Shown piece after piece: positions 583 through 50,945 of a stretch of 64,000 nt of DNA. The position numbers and the translations under genes were made by a program. Within the stretch, counting starts at the first letter, position 1; every line of letters begins with the position of its first letter. A model generated the notes under the pieces. That model saw only the letters and a list, made by a program, of their open reading frames with translations, was not told the origin of the DNA and made no database searches. Origin of the DNA: a bacterium (GTDB lineage Bacteria; Patescibacteriota; Minisyncoccia; Moranbacterales; DUUL01); NCBI GenBank assembly GCA_018675685.1, contig JABGXP010000010.1, forward strand, positions 49,427 to 113,426. Reading direction: 5' to 3'.

Positions 583-594
583 TGTATCGTTTAT

Positions 595-3079: not shown

Positions 3080-3156
3080 AAAGTGCCCAGCATATTTGAA
3101 ATTGAAAGTAGTAGTTTTTTAGTGTAGAATAGAAATAGAACTACAAAGAGAATTGT

Positions 3157-3702
3157 TTGCAAACACAAAAAATGAATAATATTGAGACTTTCAACTTAAT
3201 CTCATATCTTGAGCAAGGAAACGCCTTTTTAGAAAAGTCGTATCTTTTTCGTGGATTTAAATTTATATTAGCCTTCTATTTAATTCTGATGGCTGTTGCA
3301 ATGATATTAATGCTGTATCGATTGGTTAAATACGACTATTGGAAGGTATTGATGTCTGGTTCCGAGCTTCCAAATGTGAAAGGACGCATGCAATTGACTT
3401 GGGAGAAGTCAGTTGAGAGACTCGAGTCTAGTAATCCAAACAAATGGAAAGCTGCAATCTTAGAACTTTCTAGTATGTTGAATGAAATCCTGGGCATTGT
3501 TGGATATGAGGGGGTATTATTAGGAGAAAGACTTGAGCATATACAAACCCATCAATTGGAAAACATTGCTGAAGTGATAGAAGCAAATAAAGTAAAAAAC
3601 TTAATCGTACAAGATGACGAGTTTGTGCTTACAAAAGAGGAGGCAAAAAGAGTAGCGGAAGTTTTTGGAAGAGCCCTACGTTTATTGGAGGCAATTGAAT
3701 AA
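3157..3702 (+). CDS. Hypothetical membrane protein
   Basis: 181-aa ORF with one N-terminal TM helix. The true start may be the ATG at 3172. No recognisable family. Confidence 0.4.
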   Translation: MQTQKMNNIETFNLISYLEQGNAFLEKSYLFRGFKFILAFYLILMAVAMILMLYRLVKYDYWKVLMSGSELPNVKGRMQLTWEKSVERLESSNPNKWKAAILELSSMLNEILGIVGYEGVLLGERLEHIQTHQLENIAEVIEANKVKNLIVQDDEFVLTKEEAKRVAEVFGRALRLLEAIE

Positions 3703-3724
3703 TTTTCATAAAATAAGAATTTAG

Positions 3725-10388: not shown

Positions 10389-10571
10389 GTATTACAATCA
10401 ATGATTATCACCTTGAAAAAAGGATCTTACAAGGCAGCCTTTCAGTTGTTTACTAAGCTTTTTATGGGTAATTTATTTCTAAGAAACATTTTCTATTCTA
10501 CAAGTTTCAGAACACTTGTCAAGTGGGTAAAAATATGATAAAGTCGTTCTTGTAGTCGACAACACATTTTT

Positions 10572-10643
10572 GGCCCGTTCGTCTAGTGGTTAGGACGCCA
10601 GGTTTTCATCCTGGTAACAGGGGTTCGATTCCCCTACGGGCTA
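10572..10643 (+). tRNA. tRNA-Glu (anticodon UUC)
   Basis: Cloverleaf folded by hand. Acceptor stem GGCCCGT/ACGGGCT with a G1-U72 wobble. D-arm GTCT-AGTGGTTA-GGAC. Anticodon stem CCAGG/CCTGG with loop TTTTCAT (anticodon TTC). T-arm AGGGG-TTCGATT-CCCCT. Discriminator A. No encoded CCA. Confidence 0.85.
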
Positions 10644-10655
10644 CACAGAAAAAAA

Positions 10656-10682
10656 GGCACTTCTTCGGAAGTGTCTTTTTTG
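10656..10682 (+). terminator. Intrinsic terminator after the tRNA, with a UUCG tetraloop
   Basis: GGCACTTC-TTCG-GAAGTGTC hairpin followed by a T-run. Confidence 0.6.
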
Positions 10683-10703
10683 TAGTCCGTAGGGGAATCG
10701 AAC
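10682..10703. repeat. Inverted copy of the tRNA-Glu 3' end (T-arm plus acceptor 3' strand)
   Basis: GTAGTCCGTAGGGGAATCGAAC is the reverse complement of tRNA positions 10623..10644 (GTTCGATTCCCCTACGGGCTAC) with one mismatch. No matching 5' half is present, so it is not a complete tRNA. Confidence 0.6.
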
Positions 10704-10887
10704 GGGTAGCAATGAAGTAGCTTATTTTTAGCAAAAAATAAGTGTAGCGAATGCCGATGGATGCGATTAGCATTCAGCGCTACCCTGGACAAGGAGCGAC
10801 AGCGACGCGAGAAAATGCATGAAATTGAGATGCTGATTTTGAAAAAGCCGAAGAAAGAGAAATCGAATGAGCAGTAATAAAATAAAA

Positions 10888-11011
10888 CACCCATTTAAAT
10901 GGCTATTTAATTTTATTTAATTTTCCAAAAAAGTTCTAGCACCCTCTACTCAACGGAGCAAATACTTCTAAATGCCTTTTTGAGGGCATTTTCAGGTGGT
11001 TAACGTTGACT
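10888..11011 (+). promoter_or_regulatory. Operator-like palindrome ACCCATTTAAATGGCT plus conserved box AGGTGGTTAACGTTGACT upstream of ORF 11081, copy 1
   Basis: Near-perfect 16-bp palindrome at 10888..10904. The AGGTGGTTAACGTTGACT box at 10995..11011 contains a TTGACT -35. Both pieces recur at 11821..11860. Confidence 0.45.
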
Positions 11012-11080
11012 GATTATAAGTTTTATGCTAATTTTACCCATCAGTTATTTTACATAAATTACAACAGGAGGAAGTAAGGT

Positions 11081-11398
11081 ATGAAAATATCACAAGTTTA
11101 CAGATTGTTATTCCATGTAGGTGGAGCATTTAATTTCCTTGATAGAGATTTTTTGCCTGATCTTGCAGAAATCGACAAACAATACATTTTGGATATGACC
11201 GAAGTGGTGAAGAAAGCTGTTGGTAGCAAATATGGTGAAATCACAAATGATTCTATTTTGAAAAAGGTTTTCCCTGGGAATTTAGAACTAAAGGAAAATG
11301 CTGAGATGCTACACACCAAGTATCTTCAATGGTTAGAAACTTCAAAATATCCAGGCTTATATCGTGACATAAAAAATGACCCTGGCGTTTATGCTTAA
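11081..11398 (+). CDS. Hypothetical protein (105 aa)
   Basis: Strong SD (CAGGAGGAAG) 8 nt upstream of the ATG. No recognisable family. Confidence 0.5.
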   Translation: MKISQVYRLLFHVGGAFNFLDRDFLPDLAEIDKQYILDMTEVVKKAVGSKYGEITNDSILKKVFPGNLELKENAEMLHTKYLQWLETSKYPGLYRDIKNDPGVYA

Positions 11399-11428
11399 AG
11401 GGAAAATGACAAACAAAGGGAGAATGAA

Positions 11429-11695
11429 ATGGAATTAAAACCTTATTTTTACAAACAAAGAGTCAAGGACACTCATTCCGACTATGGAAAAGTAGCCATT
11501 AGTTTAGAGAAATGTCCTAACGGTACAGTAGAGTTGATGGGATGTGCTTGCACCTTTCATAGTTGTTGTAAAGATCACAAACCCCATATGCGCATAGTGG
11601 AAACCCCATACTGCTGGATACAATGCGAAGCTACAACAAAAATGATGGAAAGAGATCCTACTTTGGGACAAGTGGAAACATGTCGCGTAAAATAA
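11429..11695 (+). CDS. Small cysteine-rich protein (88 aa, 8 Cys)
   Basis: An SD (AAGGGAGA) precedes the ATG. Cys pattern CPNGT..GCAC..HSCC..CWIQC. Followed by an intrinsic terminator. Confidence 0.5.
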   Translation: MELKPYFYKQRVKDTHSDYGKVAISLEKCPNGTVELMGCACTFHSCCKDHKPHMRIVETPYCWIQCEATTKMMERDPTLGQVETCRVK

Positions 11696-11723
11696 AAAAC
11701 AAACCTTGGCAAAAAATTGCTGA

Positions 11724-11764
11724 ATCACCCCAGATCGTTATTCGATTCCGGGGTGATTTTTTTA
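11724..11764 (+). terminator. Intrinsic terminator
   Basis: ATCACCCC...GGGGTGAT stem followed by a T-run. Confidence 0.6.
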
Positions 11765-11820
11765 CTTTAAATTAAAACAGCGTTTCAAATATCTTCTGGC
11801 AGGGAGGATTGTAATAAAAT

Positions 11821-11883
11821 ACCCATTTAAATGGGTGTTTTTAGGCGGTTAACATTGACTTTCATTGCATTTTGAGGTAGAAT
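11821..11883 (+). promoter_or_regulatory. Copy 2 of palindrome ACCCATTTAAATGGGT plus AGGCGGTTAACATTGACT box, with promoter TTGACT-N17-TAGAAT for the GNAT gene
   Basis: Perfect 16-bp palindrome at 11821..11836. Conserved box at 11843..11860 whose TTGACT serves as the -35. -10 TAGAAT at 11878..11883. Confidence 0.5.
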
Positions 11884-11934
11884 TATCCGTTAAGTAAAAG
11901 TATTTTGACAATTATCCAAACGAGGAGAAAAGAG

Positions 11935-12666
11935 ATGGACAAAAAAGCGGTAACCTTAAAAGTTGGTGAAAATATCATTCTCAAAACCTTCACCCCCCAA
12001 GATGCACCAACAATTTTTGCTTTGATTGATTCCTGTCGAGAACACCTGAACCGAAACAATGAGAATACGGCGAAGAAATATCCTGATCTTGAATCGTTCA
12101 TTGAAAGCATCGTTTCTCCGAAAAAAACAAAGCGTTTACGTTTTGGAATTTGGGACAATGATGTTTTTGTCGGAAGTGTCAACATCGAAGGTAAGGGCAA
12201 TGGAAAAGCGGAACTGGGATACTGGGTTGGAGAGCAGTATCTAGGCAAGGGTTATGCGGGCACGGCTTCGTATAGATTGATTCAGTCCACTTTCAAGGGC
12301 GGTAGAATCAAACTTATCATTGCCAAGGTAGCCGAAACCAATGAGTACAGCTTTCGAATTATTGAAAAACTGGGCTTCTTTCTTGATGAGAAGAAAGAAG
12401 GAGAGCGTATCTACCATTTAGAAAGATGGCTTCCTTTCTATGTCAATGCCTGTCTTTTCTTCGGTGCTGTTGAGAATAGAGTTGAATGGGAGAAGGCTAA
12501 AAGCAACTATCCCAAAAATCCAAACTATCTACTCGACATGAGATTGAGCGAACTAACTTTGCAAGATGATCCCATGCCTGATTTTGGCGAAGGTGTCAGG
12601 TATACCGGCATCACGCTAAGAGACTGGATGACAATGAAAAATTTGGATCCAAACCAAGTCGACTGA
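11935..12666 (+). CDS. GNAT-family N-acetyltransferase (RimJ/RimL-like) with a ~75-aa C-terminal extension
   Basis: GNAT motif A: GYWVGEQYLGKGYAGTA. An SD (GAGGAG) precedes the ATG at 11935. The ORF track extended the start to 11905. Confidence 0.75.
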   Translation: MDKKAVTLKVGENIILKTFTPQDAPTIFALIDSCREHLNRNNENTAKKYPDLESFIESIVSPKKTKRLRFGIWDNDVFVGSVNIEGKGNGKAELGYWVGEQYLGKGYAGTASYRLIQSTFKGGRIKLIIAKVAETNEYSFRIIEKLGFFLDEKKEGERIYHLERWLPFYVNACLFFGAVENRVEWEKAKSNYPKNPNYLLDMRLSELTLQDDPMPDFGEGVRYTGITLRDWMTMKNLDPNQVD

Positions 12667-12695
12667 AACTCACTGGCAGTAAAATCTACTACTCC

Positions 12696-12733
12696 GCCCC
12701 TGCATCATCTGATGAAGGGGCAGTTTTATTTTG
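12696..12733 (+). terminator. Intrinsic terminator after the GNAT gene
   Basis: GCCCCTGCATCATCTGATGAAGGGGC hairpin plus a T-run. Confidence 0.55.
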
Positions 12734-12844
12734 TCTTCATTCTAGGACATCGTCCATTGACAAAAACAGTTTGTCATGCTATAGTCACTTATCAGTACTT
12801 AGCAACATTCATCAGCAACGAAACATCAAAAAAGAGGAGTGATT

Positions 12845-13147
12845 ATGCAAAAAATCGACAACTTCGCACAATTGACAGATGCGATTGGGGCTGGAAGTTC
12901 TGACCCAAGCAACCCAGGACCAGTCGTTGTTTCACTGAGTCTTTGGAACGGGAAACAGATAAACGGTGCTTATTACAGAGGAACAAAGGGCCCTGATATA
13001 ACAGTCCGAGAAGATGTTATTTGGGACAGCGAGATCCTAGATCCTTTTGTCCGGAAACTCTTTGCCGAAGGCACACCATTTATCACAGAGATGGGAAGTC
13101 ATGACATGGTCTGCACGCTCGAATGGAAGATTTCTAACGGCTCCTAG
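12845..13147 (+). CDS. Hypothetical protein (~100 aa)
   Basis: SD AAGAGGAG 6 nt upstream of the ATG at 12845. No recognisable family. Confidence 0.45.
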   Translation: MQKIDNFAQLTDAIGAGSSDPSNPGPVVVSLSLWNGKQINGAYYRGTKGPDITVREDVIWDSEILDPFVRKLFAEGTPFITEMGSHDMVCTLEWKISNGS

Positions 13148-13372
13148 GAAGCCACTGAAGAAAGTATCAACAAAGCGGGGAGTTCACAATGTGAATTTGC
13201 TGCTTTTTGTTTTTCTGTTACGAAACACGTCCGCTAGGGGGAGCATTAAATCAACAACCCAAACCACACCTTCAAATATTTCTAAAGAACTGTTATAATG
13301 GGTTATATATAATAATTAAAAATCAGGGGTGGTTTGAAAAGGGATGGGATATTTTTTATTAAATTTAAAACT

Positions 13373-31145: not shown

Positions 31146-31616
31146 TTAATAATGATATTGTTTTTTGTTGAGAATGCTAATTGCCCGATAGATTTGTTCG
31201 AATAACAATAATCTTGCTATTTCGTGAGGGAATGTCATCTGAGAAAGTGAAATTTTTTGTAGTTGTAACTTTTTGATTTCATCGCTAAACCCAAGAGTTC
31301 CAGCAACAATGAACGTGATACGCCCTGAAACTTTTTCAAGTTTTTTTGAAAAGTCGACTGAGGAGCACTCTTTGCCGTTTTCGTCTAATAGGAAAAAGTT
31401 TTCTGTATCATTTTTCATTATATATGTAAGGATTTTTTCACCTTCCTTTTTCTTGGACTTCAATTTATCACTTTCACGTAAGAATGGAATTGCTGACAAT
31501 TCAAGTATTTCTAATTTGCAAAAAGGACTAAGTCGTTTTTGATATTCTTTAACTAAAGAGAGAATTTCTTGATTTTTAATTTTTCCAACTGCAACAATTT
31601 TTATATCTAAAAACAT
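31146..31616 (-). CDS. rlmH: 23S rRNA (pseudouridine1915-N3)-methyltransferase RlmH
   Basis: SPOUT fold of ~155 aa. C-terminal FIVAGTLGFSDEI...SLSQMTFPHEIARLLLFEQIYRA is the RlmH signature. Confidence 0.8.
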   Translation of the reverse strand: MFLDIKIVAVGKIKNQEILSLVKEYQKRLSPFCKLEILELSAIPFLRESDKLKSKKKEGEKILTYIMKNDTENFFLLDENGKECSSVDFSKKLEKVSGRITFIVAGTLGFSDEIKKLQLQKISLSQMTFPHEIARLLLFEQIYRAISILNKKQYHY

Positions 31617-31734
31617 AAAAGGTTATTATTTTATTATTAATGATTTATTTTTGAAATGAAAAATGCACTACCTCGTCAATACGCGGTAGTCCATTTCTGG
31701 TCGCTCCTCGGCGACGATCTAAGAAAGTATCCGA

Positions 31735-31854
31735 CTAATTGGCTTTTTGGACGTGGCCGTTACCTGTTGCATAGGCATTCATATCGGCATTAAATGTGTC
31801 CTGTGTACCTGCAGCTGCTGTAGCTGTAATTGGTGGTCCGTAGCGCATCTTCAT
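31735..31854 (-). CDS. Small ORF, 39 aa (MKMRYGPPITATAAAGTQDTFNADMNAYATGNGHVQKAN), not in the ORF track
   Basis: SD GGGAGGT 6-7 nt upstream. Its own promoter TTGACA-N18-TATAAT is at 31989..31960 on the minus strand. A ~100-nt leader precedes it. GC-richer codons than the background. A hairpin plus T-run terminator follows at ~31700..31660. Confidence 0.35.
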   Translation of the reverse strand: MKMRYGPPITATAAAGTQDTFNADMNAYATGNGHVQKAN

Positions 31855-31959
31855 GGGTAACCTCCCGTGGGTTAATTTGAATTTTGGCTAAAAGCCGTCG
31901 ATAAATTATGTAGACCAATCAAGCGTGAAAAGCTCGATAAGCCTAGGGAACTGTTTAGT

Positions 31960-31989
31960 ATTATAAAACAAGGGAATCGCTATTGTCAA
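31960..31989 (-). promoter_or_regulatory. Canonical sigma70-type promoter (TTGACA-N18-TATAAT) for the 39-aa ORF
   Basis: Read on the minus strand: TTGACA ATAGCGATTCCCTTGTTT TATAAT. Confidence 0.5.
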
Positions 31990-32016
31990 ATATTAATTTA
32001 ATTTTTGGTTATTTTT

Positions 32017-32056
32017 AATAAAAAAGCAGGCCCAGCTCGAAAATTCGAGTTGGGCC
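32017..32056 (-). terminator. Intrinsic terminator for the 60-aa ORF
   Basis: Hairpin GGCCCAGCTCG-AAAATT-CGAGTTGGGCC (one G-U pair) followed on the minus strand by a T-run. A second small hairpin GGGGTCCTTTACCCC sits at 32068..32082. Confidence 0.6.
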
Positions 32057-32094
32057 TGACATTTTGTGGGGTCCTTTACCCCAAAGCCGGCTTG

Positions 32095-32277
32095 TTATCC
32101 ACAAATCATGATTCCCATTGCACCGTCTGCTGAGACATCGTCCGCAACCATAGTAGAATGGCTGACAATGCAGGTGGTCACCACATTTCCGAGATCATCT
32201 GATTTTCCTGTGGCTGTGCCCAGTGAGCTGTAAGTGGCATTGATATTGCCAGAGTTAAGGTTGGTAAACTTGTTCAT
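32095..32277 (-). CDS. Small ORF, 60 aa (MNKFTNLNSGNINATYSSLGTATGKSDDLGNVVTTCIVSHSTMVADDVSADGAMGIMICG)
   Basis: Strong SD TAGGAGGAAGGAGC 4-6 nt upstream of the ATG at 32277. A promoter TTGACA-N18-TAAAAT is at 32428..32399 (minus). A ~125-nt leader precedes it. GC-richer than background. The ORF track's 97-aa version starts upstream with no SD. Confidence 0.4.
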   Translation of the reverse strand: MNKFTNLNSGNINATYSSLGTATGKSDDLGNVVTTCIVSHSTMVADDVSADGAMGIMICG

Positions 32278-32398
32278 AAGCTCCTTCCTCCTACTGTGAG
32301 TGAAATACATGTGGTTTTTAGGCCACGGCTTTAGTAAAGTACTGCTTTGTCGGGTTTTTCCGATGCTACGAATGCGCTTTTGACGCAAGATTACTCTT

Positions 32399-32428
32399 AT
32401 TTTAAAACAAGTAGGGCATGCTTGTCAA
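32399..32428 (-). promoter_or_regulatory. Sigma70-type promoter (TTGACA-N18-TAAAAT) for the 60-aa ORF
   Basis: Read on the minus strand: TTGACA AGCATGCCCTACTTGTTT TAAAAT. Confidence 0.45.
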
Positions 32429-32534
32429 ATATCCAAACAACCCAAGGCATCATTTTGTTAATAGTAACCTTACTTTTCTCAAGGAAGTTTGTTATAATTG
32501 AAATGTAATTTTTCAAATAATAAAAACAAGGAGA

Positions 32535-33212
32535 ATGAATAGTATCAACATGGTTCTAACAGTTATCATGTTTGCTCTTTTCGCTGTAGCAGGACTTTTA
32601 GTTAAATTCCCTGACAAGGGGGATGATTTGATGGTGCAGCTAGCTAAGGGGCAGTTGTTTTCTGAAGAAGGAATTTACACTGGAAAAGTTGTCTTTGTGG
32701 AAGGTGACTTAGAGCAGAGAGTGCCTAAAGGTGGGGGATGGAAAAAGTTGGCGCAAGGAGAACAATTTCTTCCGGGGATGGAAATTAGAACGCTAGCAGA
32801 TTCAAAAGCAATCATTGAGTTTGATGAGAGAACAGCTCTATTAATGTCAGAAGTAACCCAAATAACTTTTGAAAATAAGCTATATCAAATTGACGTAGAG
32901 CTCGTTAATGGCTTTATTTTTAATAAAATTGATCTTGTTGCTTCTCGAAAATATAATATCAACGTAAACGATTACAGAATCGAAGCTACAAATGCTAATT
33001 TTGCTGTTAGAAAAGAATTCCAAGGCAATCCAGAAGTGTTAGTTTTGAGAGAAAAAATAGATCTATTTATAGACAAAGAGAAAAAGAACACATTTAACAA
33101 GGGGAGAAAGGTCGGTTTAAGAGTCGAAGAAATAGAAGAAATGGAAATCTCAGCCGATGATTACGCAAGGGAAGAAATGATATGGGGTTTAAAAGAGAGT
33201 GAAAAAAAATAG
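32535..33212 (+). CDS. Hypothetical membrane-anchored protein (FecR-like domain?)
   Basis: N-terminal TM helix then a beta-rich domain. The family assignment is weak. Confidence 0.35.
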   Translation: MNSINMVLTVIMFALFAVAGLLVKFPDKGDDLMVQLAKGQLFSEEGIYTGKVVFVEGDLEQRVPKGGGWKKLAQGEQFLPGMEIRTLADSKAIIEFDERTALLMSEVTQITFENKLYQIDVELVNGFIFNKIDLVASRKYNINVNDYRIEATNANFAVRKEFQGNPEVLVLREKIDLFIDKEKKNTFNKGRKVGLRVEEIEEMEISADDYAREEMIWGLKESEKK

Positions 33213-35262: not shown

Positions 35263-38001
35263 ATGATCTATTCGATCGCTGTACGGCCTAAAGAAAAAAA
35301 TGGGTCGGTTATCAAGGTCTATTATCTGGAAATTTCTAAGGAAAATCCGGACATTGATCTTCTGGCTAACACTTTGTTCCATAATCCGTTGACTGAGGAG
35401 CTGGTACCGGAACTGCCACAAGAAAACATCACAATTGTGATGCGCAACAATGCAGTTTTGGATTCTGCTCAGAAGTCAATCATCGACGGTTGTCGAAGGC
35501 TCGGTGTGGAAGTGGAAGCAGCCAAAGTAGCTCATTGCTACATTGGCGAAGTACCCGCTTCAGTTTTTATTAACCCTTTGATTCATGTGAAATATCATGA
35601 AGTGCCTCAACTGGAAACCCTGAAACCACGCGGTTCCAAGGTTCCCATGGAAGTTGTTGATTTGCGTGAGTATGACGATAAAGGACTTATGCAGATGAGC
35701 GAAGATCGGGATTTGAGTCTATCTTTGAAACAGATGAGAGAGTTGGTTTTGATTCAGATGGATTTGGAACAAGGCCCGGTTTCAGATGTATTCCTGGATA
35801 TTTTCGCGGCCCGCTGGTCAGATCACTGTTGTCACACTACTTGGCTATCCTGTGGATTGCTAAATATGCTCAAGAGAGCAACTGAAGTCATTGCCAATCC
35901 CAATCTCGTATCAGCCTATTATGATAATGCTGGTGGTTGGGCTTTCTATGACAATCTAGTGCTCTGTATTTCAATCGAAACTCATAACAGTCCGACAGGA
36001 AAAGAACCTTATGGCGGACAAATCACTAAACTACTCGGGAATATCCGTGATATTTTCGAATTTGCCTTAGGTGCCAAGCCGATTGGCTCCCTGGAATTGA
36101 CAGTTCTGGGTGAATTAGCCCGGAAAAAATTTCCTGAAATTGCTGGATTCACTCTTGATGCTGATATTGTTGCAAGGGAAACTATTCGGGCTATTGCTGA
36201 TGCCGGAGACCCCATGGGGATTCCGATGATGCTGGCCTCGATGGATTCCCATCCTGGTTATTCCGGAAAACCCTTCGCTTTGGGCGGAAATGTCGGAATT
36301 ACAAGGAAGGAAGTGGCTCAAAAAGGAGTTCCAAGAATTGGCGATTGGGCTGTAGTCCTTAACTGGACTGGTAATGATGGCTATCACGGTGCGACAGTTA
36401 GTTCTGGTGGTTTAACCGAAAAGACTGACACTGGCGATGCCAACCATGTTCAGATGGGGGATACCTTTCCACAACAGAAGTTGATGAGAGCTCGACTGGA
36501 ACTTCGTGATAATGACTGTTTGAGTGCCGGGAATGATTTCGGTGCCGCCGGATTTACTTCCTTTATGGAAATAGCCGAAGCCACTAAGCGTGGAGTCGGA
36601 TATGCTGGCGGGGTCAAACTGAATTTTGGCTGGGTTCCGACGAAATGTGTCGGTATTCCTGACAAAATTATTGCTGTTGGCGAAAGTCAGGAACGTTTCG
36701 GACACGTTGTGAAACCGGAGAAATTGGAAGAAGCCATGGCCATCTACGAAAAATATGAATTGATGGCGACTGTGGTTGGAATTTTCACTGGTAATAATCG
36801 GGTTCAGATTTTTAATGATCCCGATGCTACTAAACTAACTGTAGAGTCACCATTAACGGGGGTTGTCTCTTTTGACGTCCCCTACGAAATGTTTGATCGT
36901 TGTCCTTTGCCGACTGCTAAGCCGGTAGCTCCTCCGACGCTTTCTCCTCAGATTGTATTTCCTAAAATTGAGAAAAAGAACGTGGAAGAGTTAGCCATTC
37001 AGGTTGTAGGCAGTTTTGCCTTGGCTAATCAAGCTTGGGCTACCACCCAGTATGATTCAACAGTTCAGGGTATTACTAAACAAGGTCCGTTATACGGGAA
37101 GAATTACAATATCCCGAGTTCCTTGGCAGTACTTAAGCCAGTTGAAGATAAGAACTGGGGTGTGACTTTCAGTTCCAGTTTTGCTCCTTGGCAGTTTGAT
37201 GTTGATCCTGTTGCGGCAGCTTTCAATGCCGTAGCAGACGCTGTAATAAAACAGATTGTGGCCGGTGTAAGCATGGAAGACATTTGTCTGGCCGATAATT
37301 TTTACACCCCAGATAAAGACCCTTATGCTTTATGGTATCTATGTGAGCAGGTTAAACTGCTAGCAGAAACATCCGTTGCATTTGGGGCTCCCTTTATTAC
37401 CGGTAAGGATAGTTCTCATGGCTCAGGTGAATATAATGGCACCATTGTCAATGTTCCTCCTGGGGTCTGTGTCTCAGCGCTAGGGAAGGTTCCTGATTTT
37501 CATAAAATCACACCTCATCTCTGGAGCTCTCCTGGTAACAAATTGTATTCCATTGGTTATCAAACTAAAACCCTTAAGGGTTCGATTCTGGCTTCTGAGC
37601 TAGACTTGATCGAACGAGATCAGATTGACACTATGACAATTGGTCAGGGGGCTCGATTTTTGAAAGAGCTCGAAGTTTTTACGCAGGCTGGGCATTTTGC
37701 TTCAGCTGTGCCGGTTAACCGTGGTGGTTTGATCCAGAAATTGTTTGAAGGAGTCCAAGCTTCCGGATTTGGTGTGAAAACCGATCTAGTGGAAGAACTT
37801 TTTCCGGAAAGCTTTGGTTCAGTGCTGGTGGAAGTTTCACCCAAGATTTCAGGATTAGTGGAAGGTTATTTCAACGGCGAAATAGAATTGGTCGGTGAAA
37901 TTACCGCTACACCTGAAATAGCAGTGCAAGGAACAAACCTTGATATGAATAAACTCTTCAATGCCTGGAATAGTGGCTTTACAAGAAAGGTGGTGGTTTA
38001 A
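35263..38001 (+). CDS. purL: Phosphoribosylformylglycinamidine synthase PurL with an N-terminal PurS-like extension
   Basis: ETHNSPTGKEPYGGQITKLLGNIRDIFEFALGAKPIG matches the PurL ETHNHP...EPY..A.TG.GG.IRD pattern. Two PurM-like halves. 912 aa. Strong SD AAGGAGG. Confidence 0.85.
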   Translation: MIYSIAVRPKEKNGSVIKVYYLEISKENPDIDLLANTLFHNPLTEELVPELPQENITIVMRNNAVLDSAQKSIIDGCRRLGVEVEAAKVAHCYIGEVPASVFINPLIHVKYHEVPQLETLKPRGSKVPMEVVDLREYDDKGLMQMSEDRDLSLSLKQMRELVLIQMDLEQGPVSDVFLDIFAARWSDHCCHTTWLSCGLLNMLKRATEVIANPNLVSAYYDNAGGWAFYDNLVLCISIETHNSPTGKEPYGGQITKLLGNIRDIFEFALGAKPIGSLELTVLGELARKKFPEIAGFTLDADIVARETIRAIADAGDPMGIPMMLASMDSHPGYSGKPFALGGNVGITRKEVAQKGVPRIGDWAVVLNWTGNDGYHGATVSSGGLTEKTDTGDANHVQMGDTFPQQKLMRARLELRDNDCLSAGNDFGAAGFTSFMEIAEATKRGVGYAGGVKLNFGWVPTKCVGIPDKIIAVGESQERFGHVVKPEKLEEAMAIYEKYELMATVVGIFTGNNRVQIFNDPDATKLTVESPLTGVVSFDVPYEMFDRCPLPTAKPVAPPTLSPQIVFPKIEKKNVEELAIQVVGSFALANQAWATTQYDSTVQGITKQGPLYGKNYNIPSSLAVLKPVEDKNWGVTFSSSFAPWQFDVDPVAAAFNAVADAVIKQIVAGVSMEDICLADNFYTPDKDPYALWYLCEQVKLLAETSVAFGAPFITGKDSSHGSGEYNGTIVNVPPGVCVSALGKVPDFHKITPHLWSSPGNKLYSIGYQTKTLKGSILASELDLIERDQIDTMTIGQGARFLKELEVFTQAGHFASAVPVNRGGLIQKLFEGVQASGFGVKTDLVEELFPESFGSVLVEVSPKISGLVEGYFNGEIELVGEITATPEIAVQGTNLDMNKLFNAWNSGFTRKVVV

Positions 38002-38849: not shown

Positions 38850-39503
38850 ATGGAAATTGCAACAAACAATCGTTTGAAGGGGGCAATTGGCAGATGGAAA
38901 TTGGCAATTTGGTTGCCAGTCATTTTGTTTTGTTATTATTATGAGCTTATGCCAATCTTTCTGTTTGTGGTTATTGTAGCAGGAATGTATGAGATTAGAA
39001 TTCGGAGCGTGTTTGTTACGAATTGGTCAGTCATAGCATATTTTCATCTTGCTGGATTGTGCTGGCTCTTTATTATGCCGGAAAAAGAAATCTGGTTTAT
39101 TGTTATGGTTGTTATTATCAACGATGCTTTCGCGTATTATGGGGGAAGTTTTCTGAACTTCGCGCGGTTTATGCGAATGAAGATTTCTACTGTAAGCCCA
39201 AATAAAACTCTAGGGGGACTGATATACGGAGTTTTTGGCGGTATTTTAATGGCAATTTTACTTTTCAAATTCTATGATTATCCACCAAGATATATCTGGT
39301 TTGCCTTTCTCTTGTGTTTGGCAGGTGATGTGGGAGATTTATTGGAAAGCGGATTTAAAAGATTCTGTGGTATTAAGGATTCTGGTGATGGTCTGTTTAC
39401 AAAAAGATTACTTTGTGGACATGGTGGCGTCTATGACAGGTTCGATGCCTTGGCGTTCGTATGCCACTACTGGATGATAATAACTCTTTTGAAGTTCAAC
39501 TAA
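38850..39503 (+). CDS. CdsA-family cytidylyltransferase (phosphatidate cytidylyltransferase-like), short form
   Basis: C-terminal signature SGFKRFCGIKDSGDGLFTKRLLCGHGGVYDRFDA matches the CdsA family pattern (S..KR....KD.G...P.HGG..DR.D). Strong SD GGAGGAG. Confidence 0.65.
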   Translation: MEIATNNRLKGAIGRWKLAIWLPVILFCYYYELMPIFLFVVIVAGMYEIRIRSVFVTNWSVIAYFHLAGLCWLFIMPEKEIWFIVMVVIINDAFAYYGGSFLNFARFMRMKISTVSPNKTLGGLIYGVFGGILMAILLFKFYDYPPRYIWFAFLLCLAGDVGDLLESGFKRFCGIKDSGDGLFTKRLLCGHGGVYDRFDALAFVCHYWMIITLLKFN

Positions 39504-39525: not shown

Positions 39526-40578
39526 ATGACAAAGAAAAAAGAAACGACCTACAAGGATGCTGGTGTGGATATTGACAAAGGAGATGAATTTGTCGATCTA
39601 ATCAAGGGAAAATTGGCCACAACATTTCCACTTCTTTCAACAGGAGAAGTTATCACAGAGCTTGGAGGTTTCAGCTCCTTAGTAGAATTGCCAGATGGTA
39701 GAATCATTGCTCTCACAACTGATGGTGTGGGAACAAAATTGATGATTGCAATTCTTTTGGATAGACACAACACTGTTGGTATTGATCTTGTCGCAATGTG
39801 CGTCAATGATTTAATCGTAGGCGGAGTTATGCCAGGTGTCTTTATTGACTATATGGCTTTAGGGAAGTTGTTTGTGGATAAAGCGGTTTCATTGGTTGAC
39901 GGCATGGTCGAGGGCTGTCGTCAGTCGCAATGCGCTATGATTGGTGGTGAAACAGCTGAATGTCCTGGACTGTATGGTCCTGAAGAATATGACCTAGCTG
40001 GATTTGCTGTTGGATTTGCCGATTCTCGCAAGAAATTGATTATGGGAGATAAAGTACGTCCAGGGATGCATGTCTATGGGCTTCCGTCTTCAGGCTTACA
40101 TTCCAATGCCTTCAGTCTAGTACGGAAGATTTTCGGTATTAACCTGGATACTCCAGTTGCCTCAATCAAAGCTTTAAATGAAGTGATTCCAGCACTGGGG
40201 CATAACATTACATTGGGAGAGGAGCTTCTTCGACCAACCAGAATCTATGTCCAAGAAGTTGCAAAATTGATGCAAAAATATACTATTGCTGGCATGGTGA
40301 ACGTCACAGGCGGTGGGTTGAAAGAAAATCCTCCACGCATAATGCCAGAGGATTGCTCAATGAATATTTATCTTGACACTTGGAAGCCACAGCCCATTTT
40401 CTCTTTGATTCAGAAACTGGGAAATGTTTCCCAAGCAGAAATGCTCAAGGCAACCAACTACGGCATCGGATATATGATTATTTCACCAGATGAAATAACT
40501 GATAGTGACATTGTCAAAATAGGTGAGATTGTCGAGTATGATGGTAAAAATGTTTTTTTTAAAGACAAAAAAGATTAA
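39526..40578 (+). CDS. purM: Phosphoribosylformylglycinamidine cyclo-ligase (AIR synthetase) PurM
   Basis: YKDAGVDIDKGDEFVDLIKG...TDGVGTKLMIAILLDRHNTVGIDLVAMCVNDLIVGG. SD GGAGGTGAG. Confidence 0.9.
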   Translation: MTKKKETTYKDAGVDIDKGDEFVDLIKGKLATTFPLLSTGEVITELGGFSSLVELPDGRIIALTTDGVGTKLMIAILLDRHNTVGIDLVAMCVNDLIVGGVMPGVFIDYMALGKLFVDKAVSLVDGMVEGCRQSQCAMIGGETAECPGLYGPEEYDLAGFAVGFADSRKKLIMGDKVRPGMHVYGLPSSGLHSNAFSLVRKIFGINLDTPVASIKALNEVIPALGHNITLGEELLRPTRIYVQEVAKLMQKYTIAGMVNVTGGGLKENPPRIMPEDCSMNIYLDTWKPQPIFSLIQKLGNVSQAEMLKATNYGIGYMIISPDEITDSDIVKIGEIVEYDGKNVFFKDKKD

Positions 40579-40601
40579 AGTTGGTGTTCTTCTAACAGAA
40601 A

Positions 40602-40632
40602 CCTCCGTAGCTCGAAATTCGAGTTACGGAGG
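40602..40632. terminator. Bidirectional terminator hairpin sharing a core with the 32029..32056 hairpin
   Basis: CCTCCGTAGCTCG-AAATT-CGAGTTACGGAGG. Same inner AGCTCG/CGAGTT with the same G-U wobble position as the hairpin at 32029..32056, different outer stem. Confidence 0.55.
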
Positions 40633-40664
40633 CTTTACTTTGCTTGTGAGAAAATATCCAAAGT

Positions 40665-40865
40665 TTATTCAGAAAGTTCTTCGTATTTTCCCTCTAAATT
40701 GAAAGTCAGGACCTCAAGTGCTTTTTCGTCAGCCCCAATTGCTTCAATTAGAAGTGTTGCAGTTTCGTCATCAACTTCACTCACTGCATTTCCCCAGATA
40801 TTTTTTTGCTCCTTTGTGAGCGTTGAATTATTTATGATTTCTAAAAGCTCAGCTTCCTTTTTCAT
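40665..40865 (-). CDS. Hypothetical small acidic protein (66 aa)
   Basis: ORF only. No recognisable family. Confidence 0.35.
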   Translation of the reverse strand: MKKEAELLEIINNSTLTKEQKNIWGNAVSEVDDETATLLIEAIGADEKALEVLTFNLEGKYEELSE

Positions 40866-41020
40866 AAGAATAAAAGTTAGATTTTTTAGTACTCCTTTTA
40901 TAGCATATCAGGATTATTTAACAAGATTGAAATTTGCCAAAATAAAGGAGTCACTATAAAGACAAAAAAATGACAAACTTTTCAAGAGTTTGTCATTTTT
41001 AACCATTATGAATCAAAGGT

Positions 41021-41209
41021 CTATTCATCTTCCCGGGTAACTGATATTGCTCCAACTGGGCAACCAACAGCAGCCTTCATTGTACAAGGGAATTCTTTTT
41101 GTGAAATTGGTGACGACTTCCCTTCATCATTTGTTTGAAATGATTCTGGACAATTTGCTACACAAGTTTGACATCCAATGCAAAGATCTTGGTTTACTTC
41201 AATTTTCAT
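41021..41209 (-). CDS. fdx: 4Fe-4S ferredoxin (single cluster)
   Basis: CIGCQTCVANCP ... CPVGAI. Four-Cys ligand set. 62 aa. Confidence 0.8.
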   Translation of the reverse strand: MKIEVNQDLCIGCQTCVANCPESFQTNDEGKSSPISQKEFPCTMKAAVGCPVGAISVTREDE

Positions 41210-41362
41210 TTTGATAGTTTAAAAAATTATCAATCCTATATTCTTTATTATATAGAACTATTCTTTTAATTCCAAGTTTGTGACAAAAACAAAAGATTGA
41301 GTTAATATGTTATAGTGATAGAGAAAAAAGCAAAATAACATAGAATTTAAAAATAAAGACAG

Positions 41363-43782: not shown

Positions 43783-44448
43783 ATGGATAATATCCTGGCT
43801 GTTGTTACGACTATTTTGTGTTGGCTATTTGTTTTTGCAGTAGAAAGAAAGGTAAAAGACAATGGAAAGAGTCTAAGACAATTGATTCTACGTTATAAAT
43901 ACGTGCTACATCCCAATGCAATTACCATAGGAGCTCTTATTTTAGCCTTGATTTCAATGCGTTTGTATCATTTGCAATTTCCACGTTTGGCAATCATCCT
44001 TTTTTTAATTGCAGCTTTCGCTGATGCAATTGATGGAGTTATTGCTCGTGGAACGGGACTTGTGACTTCGCTGGGAAAGGAGATAGACCCTCTTTGTGAC
44101 AAAATTAAATATTTCATCCCCTTGATTTATTTTGCTTATCAAGGCTTATTGTCGAAAGAATTGGTTATTATACTTTTCTTGATTGATGTAACTGGTCAAT
44201 TACTAAGAAGAAGTGTTTCGTGCATCAATAAGAATTTTAAACTTAAATTCAAAATTGCCTCGAATGGTTTCGGAAAGATTAAAACAATTCTAGCATTGTT
44301 ACTAGTAGTTTATTGTTGCTTATTACAACAACGAAGTGGTGTACCGGATTTTGCTAACCACATACTATTTATTGTTTTGATCTTAGCCACTCTTTCTGTC
44401 GTTTTCAAATTTGTGAAAAATAAAGCGACGAAAGAAAGACTTGTATAG
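43783..44448 (+). CDS. CDP-alcohol phosphatidyltransferase (PgsA-like)
   Basis: DAIDGVIARGTGLVTSLGKEIDPLCDKI matches D-G-x2-A-R-x8-G-x3-D-x3-D. Confidence 0.75.
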   Translation: MDNILAVVTTILCWLFVFAVERKVKDNGKSLRQLILRYKYVLHPNAITIGALILALISMRLYHLQFPRLAIILFLIAAFADAIDGVIARGTGLVTSLGKEIDPLCDKIKYFIPLIYFAYQGLLSKELVIILFLIDVTGQLLRRSVSCINKNFKLKFKIASNGFGKIKTILALLLVVYCCLLQQRSGVPDFANHILFIVLILATLSVVFKFVKNKATKERLV

Positions 44449-44696: not shown

Positions 44697-45359
44697 TTAG
44701 TCACAGCAGACGCGATTACGTCCACATTTTTTTGCTTTGTACAAATTTTCATCTGCTTCACTCATAAGGGCAGGTAGCGACTGCTCTTTATCGCGCAGAG
44801 TCGCCACACCTAAACTCAGAGTTAAAATTTCGGAAGCATCAGAATTGGAATGGGGAATTTCAAGTTTTTCAATGGCTAAGCGAGCTCTTTCTGCCATAAC
44901 TTGAGCACCTGCTTCATCAGTGTTGGCAAGAATAAAGACAAATTCCTCCCCTCCATATCTTGATAAGGAGTCAGCAGGACGATGCAAGGTGTCTTTGAGC
45001 GCCATCGCAACATTTTCGAGCGCCTCATCTCCTTTTTGATGTCCGTAAAGATCGTTATATTTCTTAAAATAATCAATATCGATCATTACAATAGACAGGG
45101 GTTCATTCCGCCGTAAAGATTCACGGAATTCTCGTTTTGACTCTTGATCAAAGAATCTCCTATTTGAAACACCCGTTAGTCCATCAATCGTTACGAGAGA
45201 CTCAAGTCTTTTGTTTTCCTCCTCTAGCTGGATTATATAGGCCAGTGATCCATCTAACCGCTTTTCTGTCTTGGCTAGTTTTTTTGCAAAGGATTTAATG
45301 ATCTTTCGCAATTTCTCTACTAATAAGTCGACATGTGGTAATCTTGACTCCTTTGCCAT
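44697..45359 (-). CDS. Diguanylate cyclase (GGDEF domain) with N-terminal coiled coil
   Basis: GLTGVSNRRFFD, the GGEEF active site (RYGGEEFVFIL), and an I-site-like RPAD motif. SD AAGGAG. GC-richer than background. Confidence 0.9.
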   Translation of the reverse strand: MAKESRLPHVDLLVEKLRKIIKSFAKKLAKTEKRLDGSLAYIIQLEEENKRLESLVTIDGLTGVSNRRFFDQESKREFRESLRRNEPLSIVMIDIDYFKKYNDLYGHQKGDEALENVAMALKDTLHRPADSLSRYGGEEFVFILANTDEAGAQVMAERARLAIEKLEIPHSNSDASEILTLSLGVATLRDKEQSLPALMSEADENLYKAKKCGRNRVCCD

Positions 45360-47633: not shown

Positions 47634-50600
47634 ATGAGCGAAGAAGAAAAACAAAAACAAAATGAAGAAAACTCTGATGATGCTCAAAAGGCTAGTCAGA
47701 CAAATGTGAATGACGACGAAGAAAGAGTTGTGTACGAAGAAGATGAATCGCCGGAAGAAAAAGAGCGCCGTCATCTTGAGGCACGAGACAAGAGGCGAGC
47801 AGAAAGAAAAGCCTTAGAAGAAAAGGAGAAAAGGGATGTAAAGGAAAGAAAGAAGAAGAAAAAGGAAGAAATGAACTTTGCTAGAAAAGGGAAGGTTCAA
47901 AAAACCCTAACACACTTGAAAAAGGGTTCCGAGGAAGAAGAGGCTTCAAAACTGGCAAACACACTTCATATCCCGTATCTTGATCTTAATATTTTTCCGA
48001 TTGACCAGGAAAATGTTAAATTTATAGAAGAGGATATTGCGAAAGAGTTAGGAATAGCAGTTGTTCATAAACTAGAAAGATCAATAAAGTTAGTCACGAC
48101 AAACCCTGAAGAGGGAAAAGTCAGGGATTTCATCGCAGAACTAGAAGATGATGGGATGAAAGTCGAACTTTTTATAGTTTCGCAATCATCCATAGAGAGA
48201 GCCTGGGACGAGTATGGAAAGGAAAACTTAGTAGAAATCCTAGATACATTACGAGCGGGGTTAACAGGTGAAGAGTTAGCAGCTTTCGAAAATGATACGA
48301 AAGGTGTTTTGGATATGGATACAAAAATTCGTGACCTTCCAGTAACAAAAGTCTTGAACATGGTTCTGGCTGGAGCTATTAAGTTAGAATCATCGGATAT
48401 TCATTTCGAGCCACAACAAACAAGTAAGGTCCGTTTGAGATTTCGTATAGACGGTGTATTGCAAACAGTAGCATCTTTCCCTGTTCATATATATCCAACG
48501 GTTGTTGCTAGAGTGAAGGTGCTTGGAAAAATGATGATTAATGTGCGAGATATTGCACAAGACGGTCGTTTTTCTGTTGAAAGAGAGGGTCAAGCCCCAA
48601 TGGATTTGCGTGTTTCGATTCTACCAGGTAATTTTGGTGAAAATATTGTGGTTCGTTTGCTTAGTCAAAACATCGATGACTTGTCTTTAGATAAAATGGG
48701 ATTAGAAGGGCTGAATTACGAATGGCTTATTAATGAATCTGAAAAAAAACAGGGTGCTATTATTAATTCTGGACCAACAGGAAGCGGAAAAACAACAACA
48801 TTATATGCGCTTATTAATCGTTTAAATTCCGTTGACAAGAAAATCATTAGTATCGAAAACCCGATTGAATATCAAGTCCCTGGTGTTAGTCAAACCCAAA
48901 TTGAAGAAAGAAAGGGATACACATTTGAAAGTGGCCTGCGGGCAATTATGCGTCAGGACCCAGACATTATCTTGGTCGGTGAGATTCGGGATGAAGCTAC
49001 TGCAGAGATAGCCATTCATGCCTCATTGACTGGTCATCTTGTGCTTTCAACAACTCATGCAAATAGTGCGACGGGGGTGATTGGACGTTTCGTTGATCTT
49101 GGAATTAAACCAAACTTAATAGCCCCTGCAATCAATGCTTTTGTTGCACAACGTCTTCTGAGACGTCTATGCCCACATTGCAAAGAGGAATACAAACCAG
49201 CAAGTGAGACAATTGATATGATTAAGAAAATGTTGGCGCTTATTTCTCCTAAGGCTGATATTTCCATACCTAAGCATATTGAAAAACTTTGGAGACCAAA
49301 GGGTTGTCATAAATGTCATGGACTTGGGTATAAAGGAAGAGTGGGAATTTTTGAGATCCTTGTTATTTCAGAAGAAATCAAAGATGAAATCGAGAGAATG
49401 TCGCCAGAGGATGAAATTAGGAGTGTGGCATTGGAAAATGGAATGATTACTTTGGAGCAGGACGGAATTTTAAAATCTGTTATTGGTACTACCTCAATCG
49501 AGGAATTGCAAAGAGTCGTTGGAAAGGGTGAATACTTGATTGATTTATATGAAAAAATAGTTGTACAATCTTTGGCACGTGGAATTTTTGTTAAAGATGA
49601 AGTTTTGCAGGCTGTTGATAAAATCAGGGATGATTATGAGGCATTCGAAGAACTGTATCGGAAACTTCCGCCAAAGGAATTAATCAAATACATTCTAATT
49701 GGAGCAATATACACAGGAACTGGAGACATTCATATTGAACCAGGGATGAAGCAATTTAAGATTCGATATCGAATTGACGGTGCTTTGCATGATATCGCAC
49801 TTTTGGCAATGAATGATTATTTGACTGTCTTAAATGAGATTAAGAATTTAATGGGAGTTAAAACCGGAAAGCGAGAAGGAGTGATTGATGGGAGATTTAA
49901 AATTATGTATACCAATAAAGACAAGGAGTCAGGAGAGGAGAGTATTGACGTTCGTGTTTCTATTATACTTGGTGGCTTTGGCGATGTAATCGTGATGAGA
50001 CTTTTAAGTCAAAGCGTCCAAGTTGCTAGCTTGGAAAAGTTAAATATAAATGAGTATAATCTTGAGAAAATAAAGAGAAATGTTGCCCGTCCCAATGGGA
50101 TTATTATGGATACAGGACCGACTGGGAGTGGAAAAACTACTACATTGTACAGTCTTTTGAATTATCTTAAGGACCCTAAATTAAAATTAATCACAATTGA
50201 AGATCCAATTGAATATCAAATGGAAGGAGTTTTGCAAACTCAAGTAAAAGAGGAAGAAGATTATACCTTCACGACAGCGATGAGGGTTATTTTACGACAA
50301 GACCCTGATATTGTAATGGTTGGAGAAATAAGAGACTCAGAGAGCGCCAATGCTGCCTATAGAGTAGCTTTAACAGGGCATTTAATCCTAACCACACTAC
50401 ATGCAAACAGTGCAGCAGGAGCTGTGCAAAGACTTTTGAATATGGGTATATCGATGTCGGATCTATCAACTGGTACGAATTGTTTTATTGCACAACGTTT
50501 AGTCAGAGTACTTTGTCCTCATTGCAAAAAAGAAAAAACAGTTGATTCGGAAGAAAAAAAGATAATTGAAAAAGTTTTAAAGGGTGTTTCTCCGAAAGTG

Positions 50601-50945
50601 ACCCTAGATATTCCTGAAAAAGTTGAAAAAATTTGGGAAGCAGTTGGTTGTGAAGAATGCCATAACATTGGTTTCAAGGGAAGAGTTGCAATTACGGAGG
50701 TCTTGGAGATTGATAGAGTAATGCAAAAATTTCTAACCATGAATCCAATCACAGTTGAAATTAGAGAGAAGGCGATTGAAGAGGGAATGTTGACGATGGG
50801 ACAAGAAGGAATCTTGCGTGTTGTAAGAGGGGAAACAACAATCGAAGAGATTTCCCATGTAATTAAAGAGATAGATTTTGTCAAAGTTGAAAAACAAATT
50901 GAGTTAAAGGAAGAAGAATCCGCAACCGAAGAGGTTGTGGTGTGA
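47634..50945 (+). CDS. Tandem-fused double PilB/GspE-family secretion ATPase (two complete ATPase modules in one 1103-aa polypeptide)
   Basis: Module 1: GspE N-terminal domain, Walker A SGPTGSGKTTTLYAL, Asp box DPDIILVGEIRD, His box LTGHLVLSTTHANSA, tetra-Cys CPHCKEE...CHKCHGLGYKGR. Module 2: TGPTGSGKTTTLYSL, DPDIVMVGEIRD, LTGHLILTTLHANSA, CPHCKKE...CEECHNIGFKGR. A ~90-aa charged low-complexity N-terminus. Confidence 0.85.
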   Translation: MSEEEKQKQNEENSDDAQKASQTNVNDDEERVVYEEDESPEEKERRHLEARDKRRAERKALEEKEKRDVKERKKKKKEEMNFARKGKVQKTLTHLKKGSEEEEASKLANTLHIPYLDLNIFPIDQENVKFIEEDIAKELGIAVVHKLERSIKLVTTNPEEGKVRDFIAELEDDGMKVELFIVSQSSIERAWDEYGKENLVEILDTLRAGLTGEELAAFENDTKGVLDMDTKIRDLPVTKVLNMVLAGAIKLESSDIHFEPQQTSKVRLRFRIDGVLQTVASFPVHIYPTVVARVKVLGKMMINVRDIAQDGRFSVEREGQAPMDLRVSILPGNFGENIVVRLLSQNIDDLSLDKMGLEGLNYEWLINESEKKQGAIINSGPTGSGKTTTLYALINRLNSVDKKIISIENPIEYQVPGVSQTQIEERKGYTFESGLRAIMRQDPDIILVGEIRDEATAEIAIHASLTGHLVLSTTHANSATGVIGRFVDLGIKPNLIAPAINAFVAQRLLRRLCPHCKEEYKPASETIDMIKKMLALISPKADISIPKHIEKLWRPKGCHKCHGLGYKGRVGIFEILVISEEIKDEIERMSPEDEIRSVALENGMITLEQDGILKSVIGTTSIEELQRVVGKGEYLIDLYEKIVVQSLARGIFVKDEVLQAVDKIRDDYEAFEELYRKLPPKELIKYILIGAIYTGTGDIHIEPGMKQFKIRYRIDGALHDIALLAMNDYLTVLNEIKNLMGVKTGKREGVIDGRFKIMYTNKDKESGEESIDVRVSIILGGFGDVIVMRLLSQSVQVASLEKLNINEYNLEKIKRNVARPNGIIMDTGPTGSGKTTTLYSLLNYLKDPKLKLITIEDPIEYQMEGVLQTQVKEEEDYTFTTAMRVILRQDPDIVMVGEIRDSESANAAYRVALTGHLILTTLHANSAAGAVQRLLNMGISMSDLSTGTNCFIAQRLVRVLCPHCKKEKTVDSEEKKIIEKVLKGVSPKVTLDIPEKVEKIWEAVGCEECHNIGFKGRVAITEVLEIDRVMQKFLTMNPITVEIREKAIEEGMLTMGQEGILRVVRGETTIEEISHVIKEIDFVKVEKQIELKEEESATEEVVV

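Follow-up and report, generated by a model that had tools for sequence, protein, structure and literature searches.

What do two small predicted transcription units do in the gap upstream of rlmH? The question is raised by a stretch of 64 kb (called the window below) from a marine genome, probably of the Patescibacteria. The gap analysed covers 918 bp (31617-32534) between two divergent genes, rlmH (31146..31616, minus strand; PF02590, E 1e-44) and a gene assigned by Pfam to a FecR-domain membrane protein (32535..33212, plus strand), which also serve as synteny anchors. It contains two cassettes on the minus strand, each with a near-consensus sigma-70 promoter, a leader of ~100-115 nt, a strong Shine-Dalgarno (SD) sequence and an open reading frame (ORF), after which come a short GC hairpin and a terminator. 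The same kinds of cassette recur at this locus in relatives, and they match no known family. We propose, at a probability of roughly 0.58, that they are real, fast-evolving genes for soluble small proteins, arranged as two independent monocistronic cassettes in a lineage-restricted, variable intergenic island of small genes.

Cassette anatomy and composition

The two promoters lie where a first-pass annotation of the window had placed them, at 32428..32399 for unit 1 (TTGACA-N18-TAAAAT, 11/12 consensus matches) and at 31989..31960 for unit 2 (TTGACA-N18-TATAAT, 12/12). No other site in the 64 kb matches TTGACA-N16-18-TAWAAT; shuffled sequence is expected to give 0.33 such matches, and two were reached in 6 of 100 shuffles. 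An equivalent TTGACA promoter lies upstream of unit 1 in L059, a relative that has orthologues of both units. When transcription start sites are placed from the -10 boxes, at ~32392 and ~31953, the units have 5′ leaders of ~115 nt (32278..32392) and ~99 nt (31855..31953), respectively.

A 30-nt block (32350-32321) is conserved in the leader of unit 1, where a small hairpin, GUGG/CCAC (32326-32311), also lies; this hairpin becomes GUGAC/GUCAC in L059 through compensatory changes. The leader further contains an extended SD purine tract of 12 nt, AGGAGGAAGGAG (32281..32292), read directly from the DNA. The ORF that follows encodes 60 residues (MNKFTNLNSG...IMICG; 32095..32277 including the stop, ATG at 32277), and its most conserved block is GGAAATGTGGTGACCACCTGCATTGTCAGC (LGNVVTTCIVS), at 32190-32161. 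Downstream, both direct reading and folding give a first 3′ hairpin, GGGGU-AAAGG-ACCCC (32068..32082); a hairpin is also present at this position in two relatives, L059 and L075, and with a different sequence in a third, L063. The unit closes with an intrinsic terminator (32021..32058), a 14-bp hairpin (32058-32027) followed by the T-run CTTTTTTATT, which is kept in L059.

Unit 2 has the SD sequence GGGAGGT at 31866-31860, which is partly paired in a 5-bp hairpin (UAACC/GGUUA); its purine tract measures 7-8 nt. Its ORF encodes 39 residues (MKMRYGPPITAT...VQKAN; 31735..31854 including the stop, ATG at 31854). The first 3′ hairpin, GUCGC-CGAGGA-GCGAC (31700..31715), is read directly from the DNA and appears in L059 as GUUGC-CGGAAA-GCAAC, a compensatory change from C-G to U-A. 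A terminator-like hairpin (31696-31667) with the T-rich tail GCATTTTTCATTTC follows at 31653..31696; it is seen in the minimum free energy (MFE) fold and was missed by the terminator scan because its loop exceeds 8 nt. Beyond it is only a weak candidate promoter for rlmH, TTCAAA-N16-TAAAAT (31628..31655, minus strand), with 9/12 matches. Stretches of the predicted products read FTNLNSGNINATYSSLGTATGK, SDDLGNVVTTCIVSHSTMVADDVSADGAMGIMICG and YGPPITATAAAGTQDTFNADMNAYATGNGHVQK. The leaders, SD sequences, mini-ORFs and hairpin-plus-T-run or T-rich terminators of the first-pass annotation are thus all present, and its view of two independent small cassettes is supported. The weak resemblance that it saw between the two peptides did not hold, as BLASTP returned no alignment at E<=100.

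As had also been remarked, the island is GC-richer than its surroundings, with 40.1% GC, where the window as a whole has 36.6% and most of its other intergenic gaps have 23-37%; the transcribed units reach ~46% and their untranslated regions (UTRs) 43-44%. It is the GC-richest intergenic gap of the window and falls within the top 9.5% of 918-bp windows. However, a foreign origin does not follow from this composition, because the GC content is no higher than that of the GC-richest native genes (up to 0.47), and the clade shows the cassettes repeatedly at this one locus. The statement that housekeeping genes here have no SD is broadly right: strong SD sequences precede 8 of the 53 long ORFs, and ~85% of the genes have none.

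The island in relatives

The FecR-like/rlmH pair is syntenic in relatives whose RlmH homologues are 70-83% identical, and the gap between the two genes ranges from 142 to 1148 bp. L059 (1017 bp) carries orthologues of both units, L063 (1148 bp) a unit-1 type together with an unrelated 37-aa cassette, L057 (668 bp) a unit-2 type and L075 (564 bp) a unit-1 type. No ORF is present in the 369-bp gap of L061. In L066 (160 bp), L067 (145 bp) and L064 (142 bp) the site is empty and consists of the promoter region on the FecR side and an rlmH promoter, TTGTGT-N17-TAAAAT, with nothing else. On this comparison the locus is an accessory, variable intergenic hotspot, since cassettes are present or absent among relatives at one site. 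The rlmH promoter (TCTTTGTGTCA...TAAAAT) is kept at the three empty sites and also in L061 and L063. Its canonical motif is lost in the window, L057, L059 and L075, where weak candidates downstream of the last terminator are all that is seen.

The unit-1 type, with the core N-[MV]-V-T-T-x-I-V, occurs in four genomes (window, L059, L063 and L075), and the unit-2 type, marked by RYGP, in three (window, L059 and L057). Between the window and L059, unit 1 is 69% identical over 349 nt. The ORFs in the more distant cassettes have 50 residues with NMVTTDIV (L063), 42 residues with VAVTIVSN (L075) and 54 residues beginning MATETRYGPT (L057). In all of the homologous cassettes the ORF has a TTGAC-type promoter of its own and a GGAG preceding its ATG, and two 3′ hairpins come after it, first a short one and then that of the terminator. 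The unrelated third cassette of L063 occupies the same island position (4478-4920) and has a TTGACA-like promoter, the SD sequence AAAGGAGAG and several long hairpins; its ORF is acidic, with 37 residues (MTNYLSLQLEEEEWVSPPLPENEILNYINLNCRRSAH).

Synteny ends just past the island. In L061, L063 and L064 (positions 1-3980), a giant gene for ~2,460-2,495 aa with Kelch/beta-propeller Pfam matches adjoins the FecR-like gene, and at this place the window and L057 carry glucan phosphorylase and purine-synthesis genes. In L068, a more remote relative whose RlmH is 54% identical, a 55-aa MazE/AbrB-like gene (3198-3365; PF04014, E 8e-4) lies directly upstream of rlmH. Homology of unit 1 to this gene was considered because of a shared MxKFTNxN start (MNKFTNLN in unit 1, MKKFTNDN in L068) and was rejected when BLASTP gave no alignment. 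Scans with RlmH of genome and metagenome contigs added only relatives that are <=45% identical; in one contig, L003, a 23S rRNA gene lies upstream of rlmH. The species itself is present in many marine assemblies as essentially identical copies, and because nine same-species contigs are 99.9-100% identical they offer no polymorphism that could be used to follow variation within the population.

Outside this clade the peptides have no detectable relatives in the collections searched. A word-index search, run with the peptide and with a three-sequence profile, and an exhaustive HMMER profile scan over 1.84 billion representatives each retrieved two sequences and no others, the window peptide itself and the orthologue from L059 (P0131). 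Profiles of Pfam, NCBIfam, PHROG, PADLOC and PDB gave no match for any peptide. The unit-1 and unit-2 types are, as far as these searches reach, small families confined to a narrow clade. In the public 90%-identity cluster of the 39-aa peptide (P0004-P0007), the representative is a Kelch-like fish protein of 411 residues, and one member comes from Coryphaenoides rupestris; we reject these fish Kelch proteins as spurious low-complexity clustering, which could mislead automated annotation.

An origin from a mobile element was rejected, as the core motifs were unmatched in IMG/VR viral contigs, phage records and plasmids, and comparison of empty with occupied sites revealed no flanking direct repeats. 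No paralogues of the cassettes were found in the window or in any fetched locus. Homogenisation of promoters within genomes was likewise discarded, since pairs of promoters are 60-70% identical within and between genomes alike and give no signal.

Translation, RNA structure and competing explanations

Several features of the homologues bear on translation. An ATG with GGAG or GGAGG 6-11 nt before it is kept in 7/7 cassettes (two each in the window and L059, one each in L063, L075 and L057), at a spacing of 9-11 nt in the four unit-1-type homologues and ~6 nt in the unit-2 type. Indels that separate the ORFs of the window from those of L059 measure 3 and 9 nt in unit 1 and 3 nt in unit 2; they keep the frame and introduce no stops. 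When the observed substitutions were placed at random, the frame stayed open with an intact ATG in 10% (unit 1) and 8% (unit 2) of the simulations, and the chance is ~0.01-0.03 per unit once the in-frame indels are counted. The conserved block ATGGTGACCACCnnnATTGTC lies in the same frame relative to the SD-led ATG in all four unit-1-type genes, and the lengths upstream of it differ by multiples of three. The RYGP codons vary across the three genomes at third positions only (CGC/CGT/CGA, GGA/GGC/GGT and CCA/CCC/CCA), and purely synonymous variation is confined to this motif. The ORFs are probably translated, given the conserved SD and ATG, the in-frame indels and the synonymous variation of RYGP. 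As judged from these alignments, selection for an intact frame with its SD and ATG is demonstrated, and amino-acid replacements outside the short motifs appear almost random. Coding on the opposite strand was rejected, because the antisense frame, although open, has no start codon in L063 and L075.

A number of observations weigh against protein-coding genes. The homologues are few, four of the unit-1 type and three of the unit-2 type. Differences between the window and L059 are spread evenly over the codon positions, [16,18,18] in unit 1 and [15,13,15] in unit 2. The ratio of nonsynonymous to synonymous divergence (dN/dS) is 0.77 and 0.63 for units 1 and 2 from the nucleotide alignment, and 0.5 and 0.3 from the protein-guided one; it is 0.10-0.16 for rlmH, the FecR-like gene and the next gene (0.11 for rlmH itself). 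An RNAcode-like permutation test was not significant for either unit (p 0.58 and 0.15), whereas rlmH gave p <0.002, with a score of 230 against a null of 16 +/- 28. The synonymous sites of unit 1 are more conserved (pS 0.36-0.44) than those of its neighbours (0.63-0.67), which may reflect either constraint at the nucleotide level or descent of the island from a more recent common ancestor. Finally, stop-free stretches of at least 50 codons are common in this GC-richer DNA, with 13/24 frames containing one, so that openness by itself carries little weight.

Several of these points would fit the main rival explanation, that of small RNAs with a regulatory or dual function, in which selection would fall chiefly on the nucleotide sequence (seed-like conserved blocks, hairpins and 5′-3′ pairing) and the ORFs would be incidental or translated only secondarily. 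We consider it unlikely, but it accounts for replacements that are random relative to codon position, for the low synonymous divergence of unit 1 and for the GC content of the UTRs. It would also explain why three genomes share the 26-nt block ATGGTGACCACCnnnATTGTC almost unchanged at the nucleotide level and free of synonymous differences, and why there are compensatory changes in three helices, namely the leader hairpin, the 3′ hairpin of unit 2 and a predicted 5′-3′ pairing, AAAGCC/GGCUUU. Against it stand the SD and ATG kept in every cassette, the in-frame indels and the behaviour of the folds. Whole units are more stable than their dinucleotide shuffles in all seven cassettes (z -1.9 to -5.2, compared with -0.02 +/- 1.4 for ten coding controls), but the 5′ UTR plus ORF body that remains after removal of the 3′ UTR is no more stable than its shuffles (mean z -0.63, range +1.3 to -2.0), so the excess stability comes from the 3′ hairpins. 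The consensus fold of the window and L059 has an energy of -49 kcal/mol, less than half of the single-sequence MFE (-111). The Rfam scan proposed by the first-pass annotation found no family that covers the region: at gathering thresholds the sole match in the 64 kb is a tRNA-Glu (10572-10643), with none in the island, and even at E<=10 the best hits within 31500-32650, most of which fall on the terminator hairpin, reach 10-28 bits where the thresholds are 34-440. ARAGORN detected no tmRNA, and no complementary target of at least 12 nt for the transcripts was found within the 64 kb. Likenesses by eye to P4/CR-V of RNase P (AAAGCC...GCCGGCUU) and to domain IV of the signal recognition particle RNA (GGAAGGAGC) were rejected, as the L059 orthologue lacks these sequences. 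We read the predicted fold as that of an ordinary mRNA, in which hairpins would serve stabilisation and termination, and not as that of a globally structured riboregulator, and the structured regulatory RNA entertained in the first-pass annotation is weakened accordingly. A further reading, which we regard as improbable, is that selection keeps the ORFs open and ribosome-loadable while the peptide sequence hardly matters, so that the cassettes would be small mRNAs made to engage ribosomes. Translation itself or SD binding would then be the function, with unit 2 as a translation-status sensor gating transcription of rlmH, a 23S rRNA methyltransferase gene, and unit 1 as an SD-rich RNA that binds the ribosome or its 30S subunit.

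The remaining alternatives turn on the peptides and on the position of unit 2. The thrL leader peptide is an attenuator, and ermCL is a leader peptide upstream of an rRNA methyltransferase gene. By analogy, unit 2 could be a translated leader that gates read-through into rlmH and senses the status of the ribosome through a stall-prone N-terminal MKMRYGPP, in the manner of erm. In all three genomes that have the RYGP cassette, it lies immediately upstream of rlmH in the same orientation, and these genomes lack the TTGTGT-N17-TAAAAT rlmH promoter of the empty sites. The N-terminal motif is the sole conserved part of the unit 2 peptide, which also has a Thr/Ala-rich stretch and a proline pair as leader peptides do, and a short ORF, a hairpin and a terminator directly precede the methyltransferase gene. 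However, unit 2 differs from thrL and ermCL in having its own 99-nt leader and a long ORF (39-54 codons) whose conserved motif is distant from the terminator. No convincing antiterminator was identified, the only candidate by eye being a 5-bp pairing (UAGUC/GACUA) that is not conserved in L059, and the weak rlmH promoter candidate lies downstream of the terminator. L057 has RYGPT instead of RYGPP, and rlmH is expressed without such a unit in five of the relatives, the cassette being absent from many that have an intact rlmH. Taken together, a leader function of unit 2 seems to us quite improbable. We think still less of the possibility that the ORFs are precursors of secreted antimicrobial peptides (class II bacteriocins, or ribosomally synthesized and post-translationally modified peptides, RiPPs) or of signalling peptides. 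Like such precursors, they are small, Thr/Ser/Gly-rich and fast-evolving, have strong promoters of their own and are patchily distributed in a variable locus. Unlike them, the peptides have no signal peptide, no double-glycine leader and no GG/GA cleavage motif conserved in the alignment. They contain 0-2 Cys residues each, which do not align, and the N terminus is no more conserved than the putative core. No precursor family of Pfam or NCBIfam matched at E<=1-10. The first-pass annotation had noted no modification enzyme or transporter gene within a few kb; among ~50 Pfam-scanned window genes there is no modification enzyme, peptidase-ABC exporter or immunity gene, and the only transporters are of the MFS and EamA families, the MFS gene close by being shared with relatives that lack the island. 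The annotation's suggestion of a secreted, bacteriocin-like product is not supported. Nor is its other suggestion, a small toxin, as the peptides have no hydrophobic segment, and type I toxin-antitoxin-like loci, where a stable, folded mRNA would encode a small toxic peptide, are in our judgement barely credible. Such loci would be in keeping with the tandem arrangement and patchy intergenic distribution of the units, and with their small ORFs, monocistronic mRNAs, long leaders and predicted 5′-3′ pairing, but the peptides are polar and have no membrane helix (maximum 15-residue Kyte-Doolittle mean <=1.14). Promoter-like sites for an antisense RNA on the plus strand are weak (9/12) and not conserved in L059.

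We return to the interpretation as small-protein genes. The peptides have 37-60 residues, a net charge of -4 to +2 and a grand average of hydropathicity of -0.86 to +0.18, and G/A/S/T/N make up 39-61% of the seven that belong to the two families. AlphaFold gave a predicted local distance difference test score of 37.6. In the proposed mechanism, two small monocistronic mRNAs would be strongly transcribed from sigma-70 promoters and protected by their 3′ hairpins. The strong SD sequences would give them privileged loading onto ribosomes in a genome where most mRNAs have no SD, and translation would yield soluble, Gly/Ala/Ser/Thr/Asn-rich and probably disordered cytoplasmic peptides. One short motif per peptide (the beta-strand-like VVTTxIV, or RYGP) appears to be constrained, with the remainder evolving almost freely. 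Since only a short linear motif is constrained in each, the peptides may dock through it on a conserved cellular partner.

Related systems, neighbouring genes and significance

Among known systems, dual-function small RNAs such as SR1 of B. subtilis, which encodes SR1P (39 aa), provide small proteins on monocistronic transcripts of small-RNA size (PMC12310071). The cassettes resemble them in predicted transcript size (300-380 nt), the promoter and intrinsic terminator that each unit has to itself, the SD-led ORF of 39-60 codons, the lineage-restricted peptide and some nucleotide conservation beyond the ORF. In contrast to them, the cassettes, which are predicted from DNA, have no sequence homology to these RNAs, no pairing target or seed identified in the 64-kb window and a body that is not unusually structured. 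A second parallel is found in rreB and rreR, small mRNAs of alpha-proteobacteria with an extended SD sequence (PMC5711450). Unit 1 shares with these a conserved small monocistronic mRNA, a long purine-rich SD tract (AGGAGGAAGGAG) and an unstructured peptide, and, as there, the interaction between mRNA and ribosome may matter as much as the peptide. It differs in its ATG start codon and phylum, and the ORFs have 39-60 codons compared with 14-18. The SD tract is 12 nt long, compared with 16-17 nt of continuous complementarity in rreB/rreR, and the purine tracts of both units (12 nt and 7-8 nt) fall short of the 16 nt or more over which an rreB-like mRNA pairs with the 16S rRNA 3′ end.

The ~50 Pfam-scanned genes of the window encode, besides the transporters mentioned above, housekeeping functions, including UvrB, Tgt, RecA, Pth, a ClpB-like protein, PurL/Q/M, UvrD, KsgA, a PilB-type ATPase, RuvB and DnaJ. 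The genes of the window are of two classes, the majority without an SD, whose upstream regions are short and AT-rich, and the minority with a strong SD. The latter include the GC-richest genes, among them purL, purM, a cdsA-like gene, a CDP-alcohol phosphatidyltransferase gene and a GGDEF gene (e.g. 35263-38001, 38850-39503, 39526-40578, 43783-44448 and 44697-45359), and may represent horizontally acquired or differently translated genes. A series of small, GC-richer ORFs follows the tRNA-Glu (10572-10644) within 10389-13333. It comprises a 105-aa ORF downstream of the tRNA gene (11081-11398, SD AGGAGGAAG), an 88-aa Cys-rich ORF (11429-11695, SD GGGAG) and a 102-aa ORF (12839-13147) whose GC content, 0.466, is the highest in the window. 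The two ORFs scanned in this series, of which the 88-aa ORF is not one, gave no Pfam match. The gap of 784 bp between purM and uvrD (40579-41362) contains no ORF of at least 90 aa, no SD-led small ORF and no Rfam match. A 1103-aa protein encoded at 47634-50945 has two T2SSE/PilB-type ATPase stretches and looks like a tandem fusion of secretion or pilus ATPases.

On the whole the findings leave current understanding as it was. If the peptides are real, they would add two orphan small-protein families for uncultured marine bacteria with reduced genomes, whose small genes have for the most part escaped annotation; in public records the 39-aa ORF is uncalled, as are several homologues. Intact SD-led frames that go together with near-random replacement are a caution, as standard coding-potential tests would dismiss such genes and GC-based screens for noncoding RNA would flag them. 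The cassettes mark a hotspot of presence and absence between two conserved genes, which could be traced across populations.

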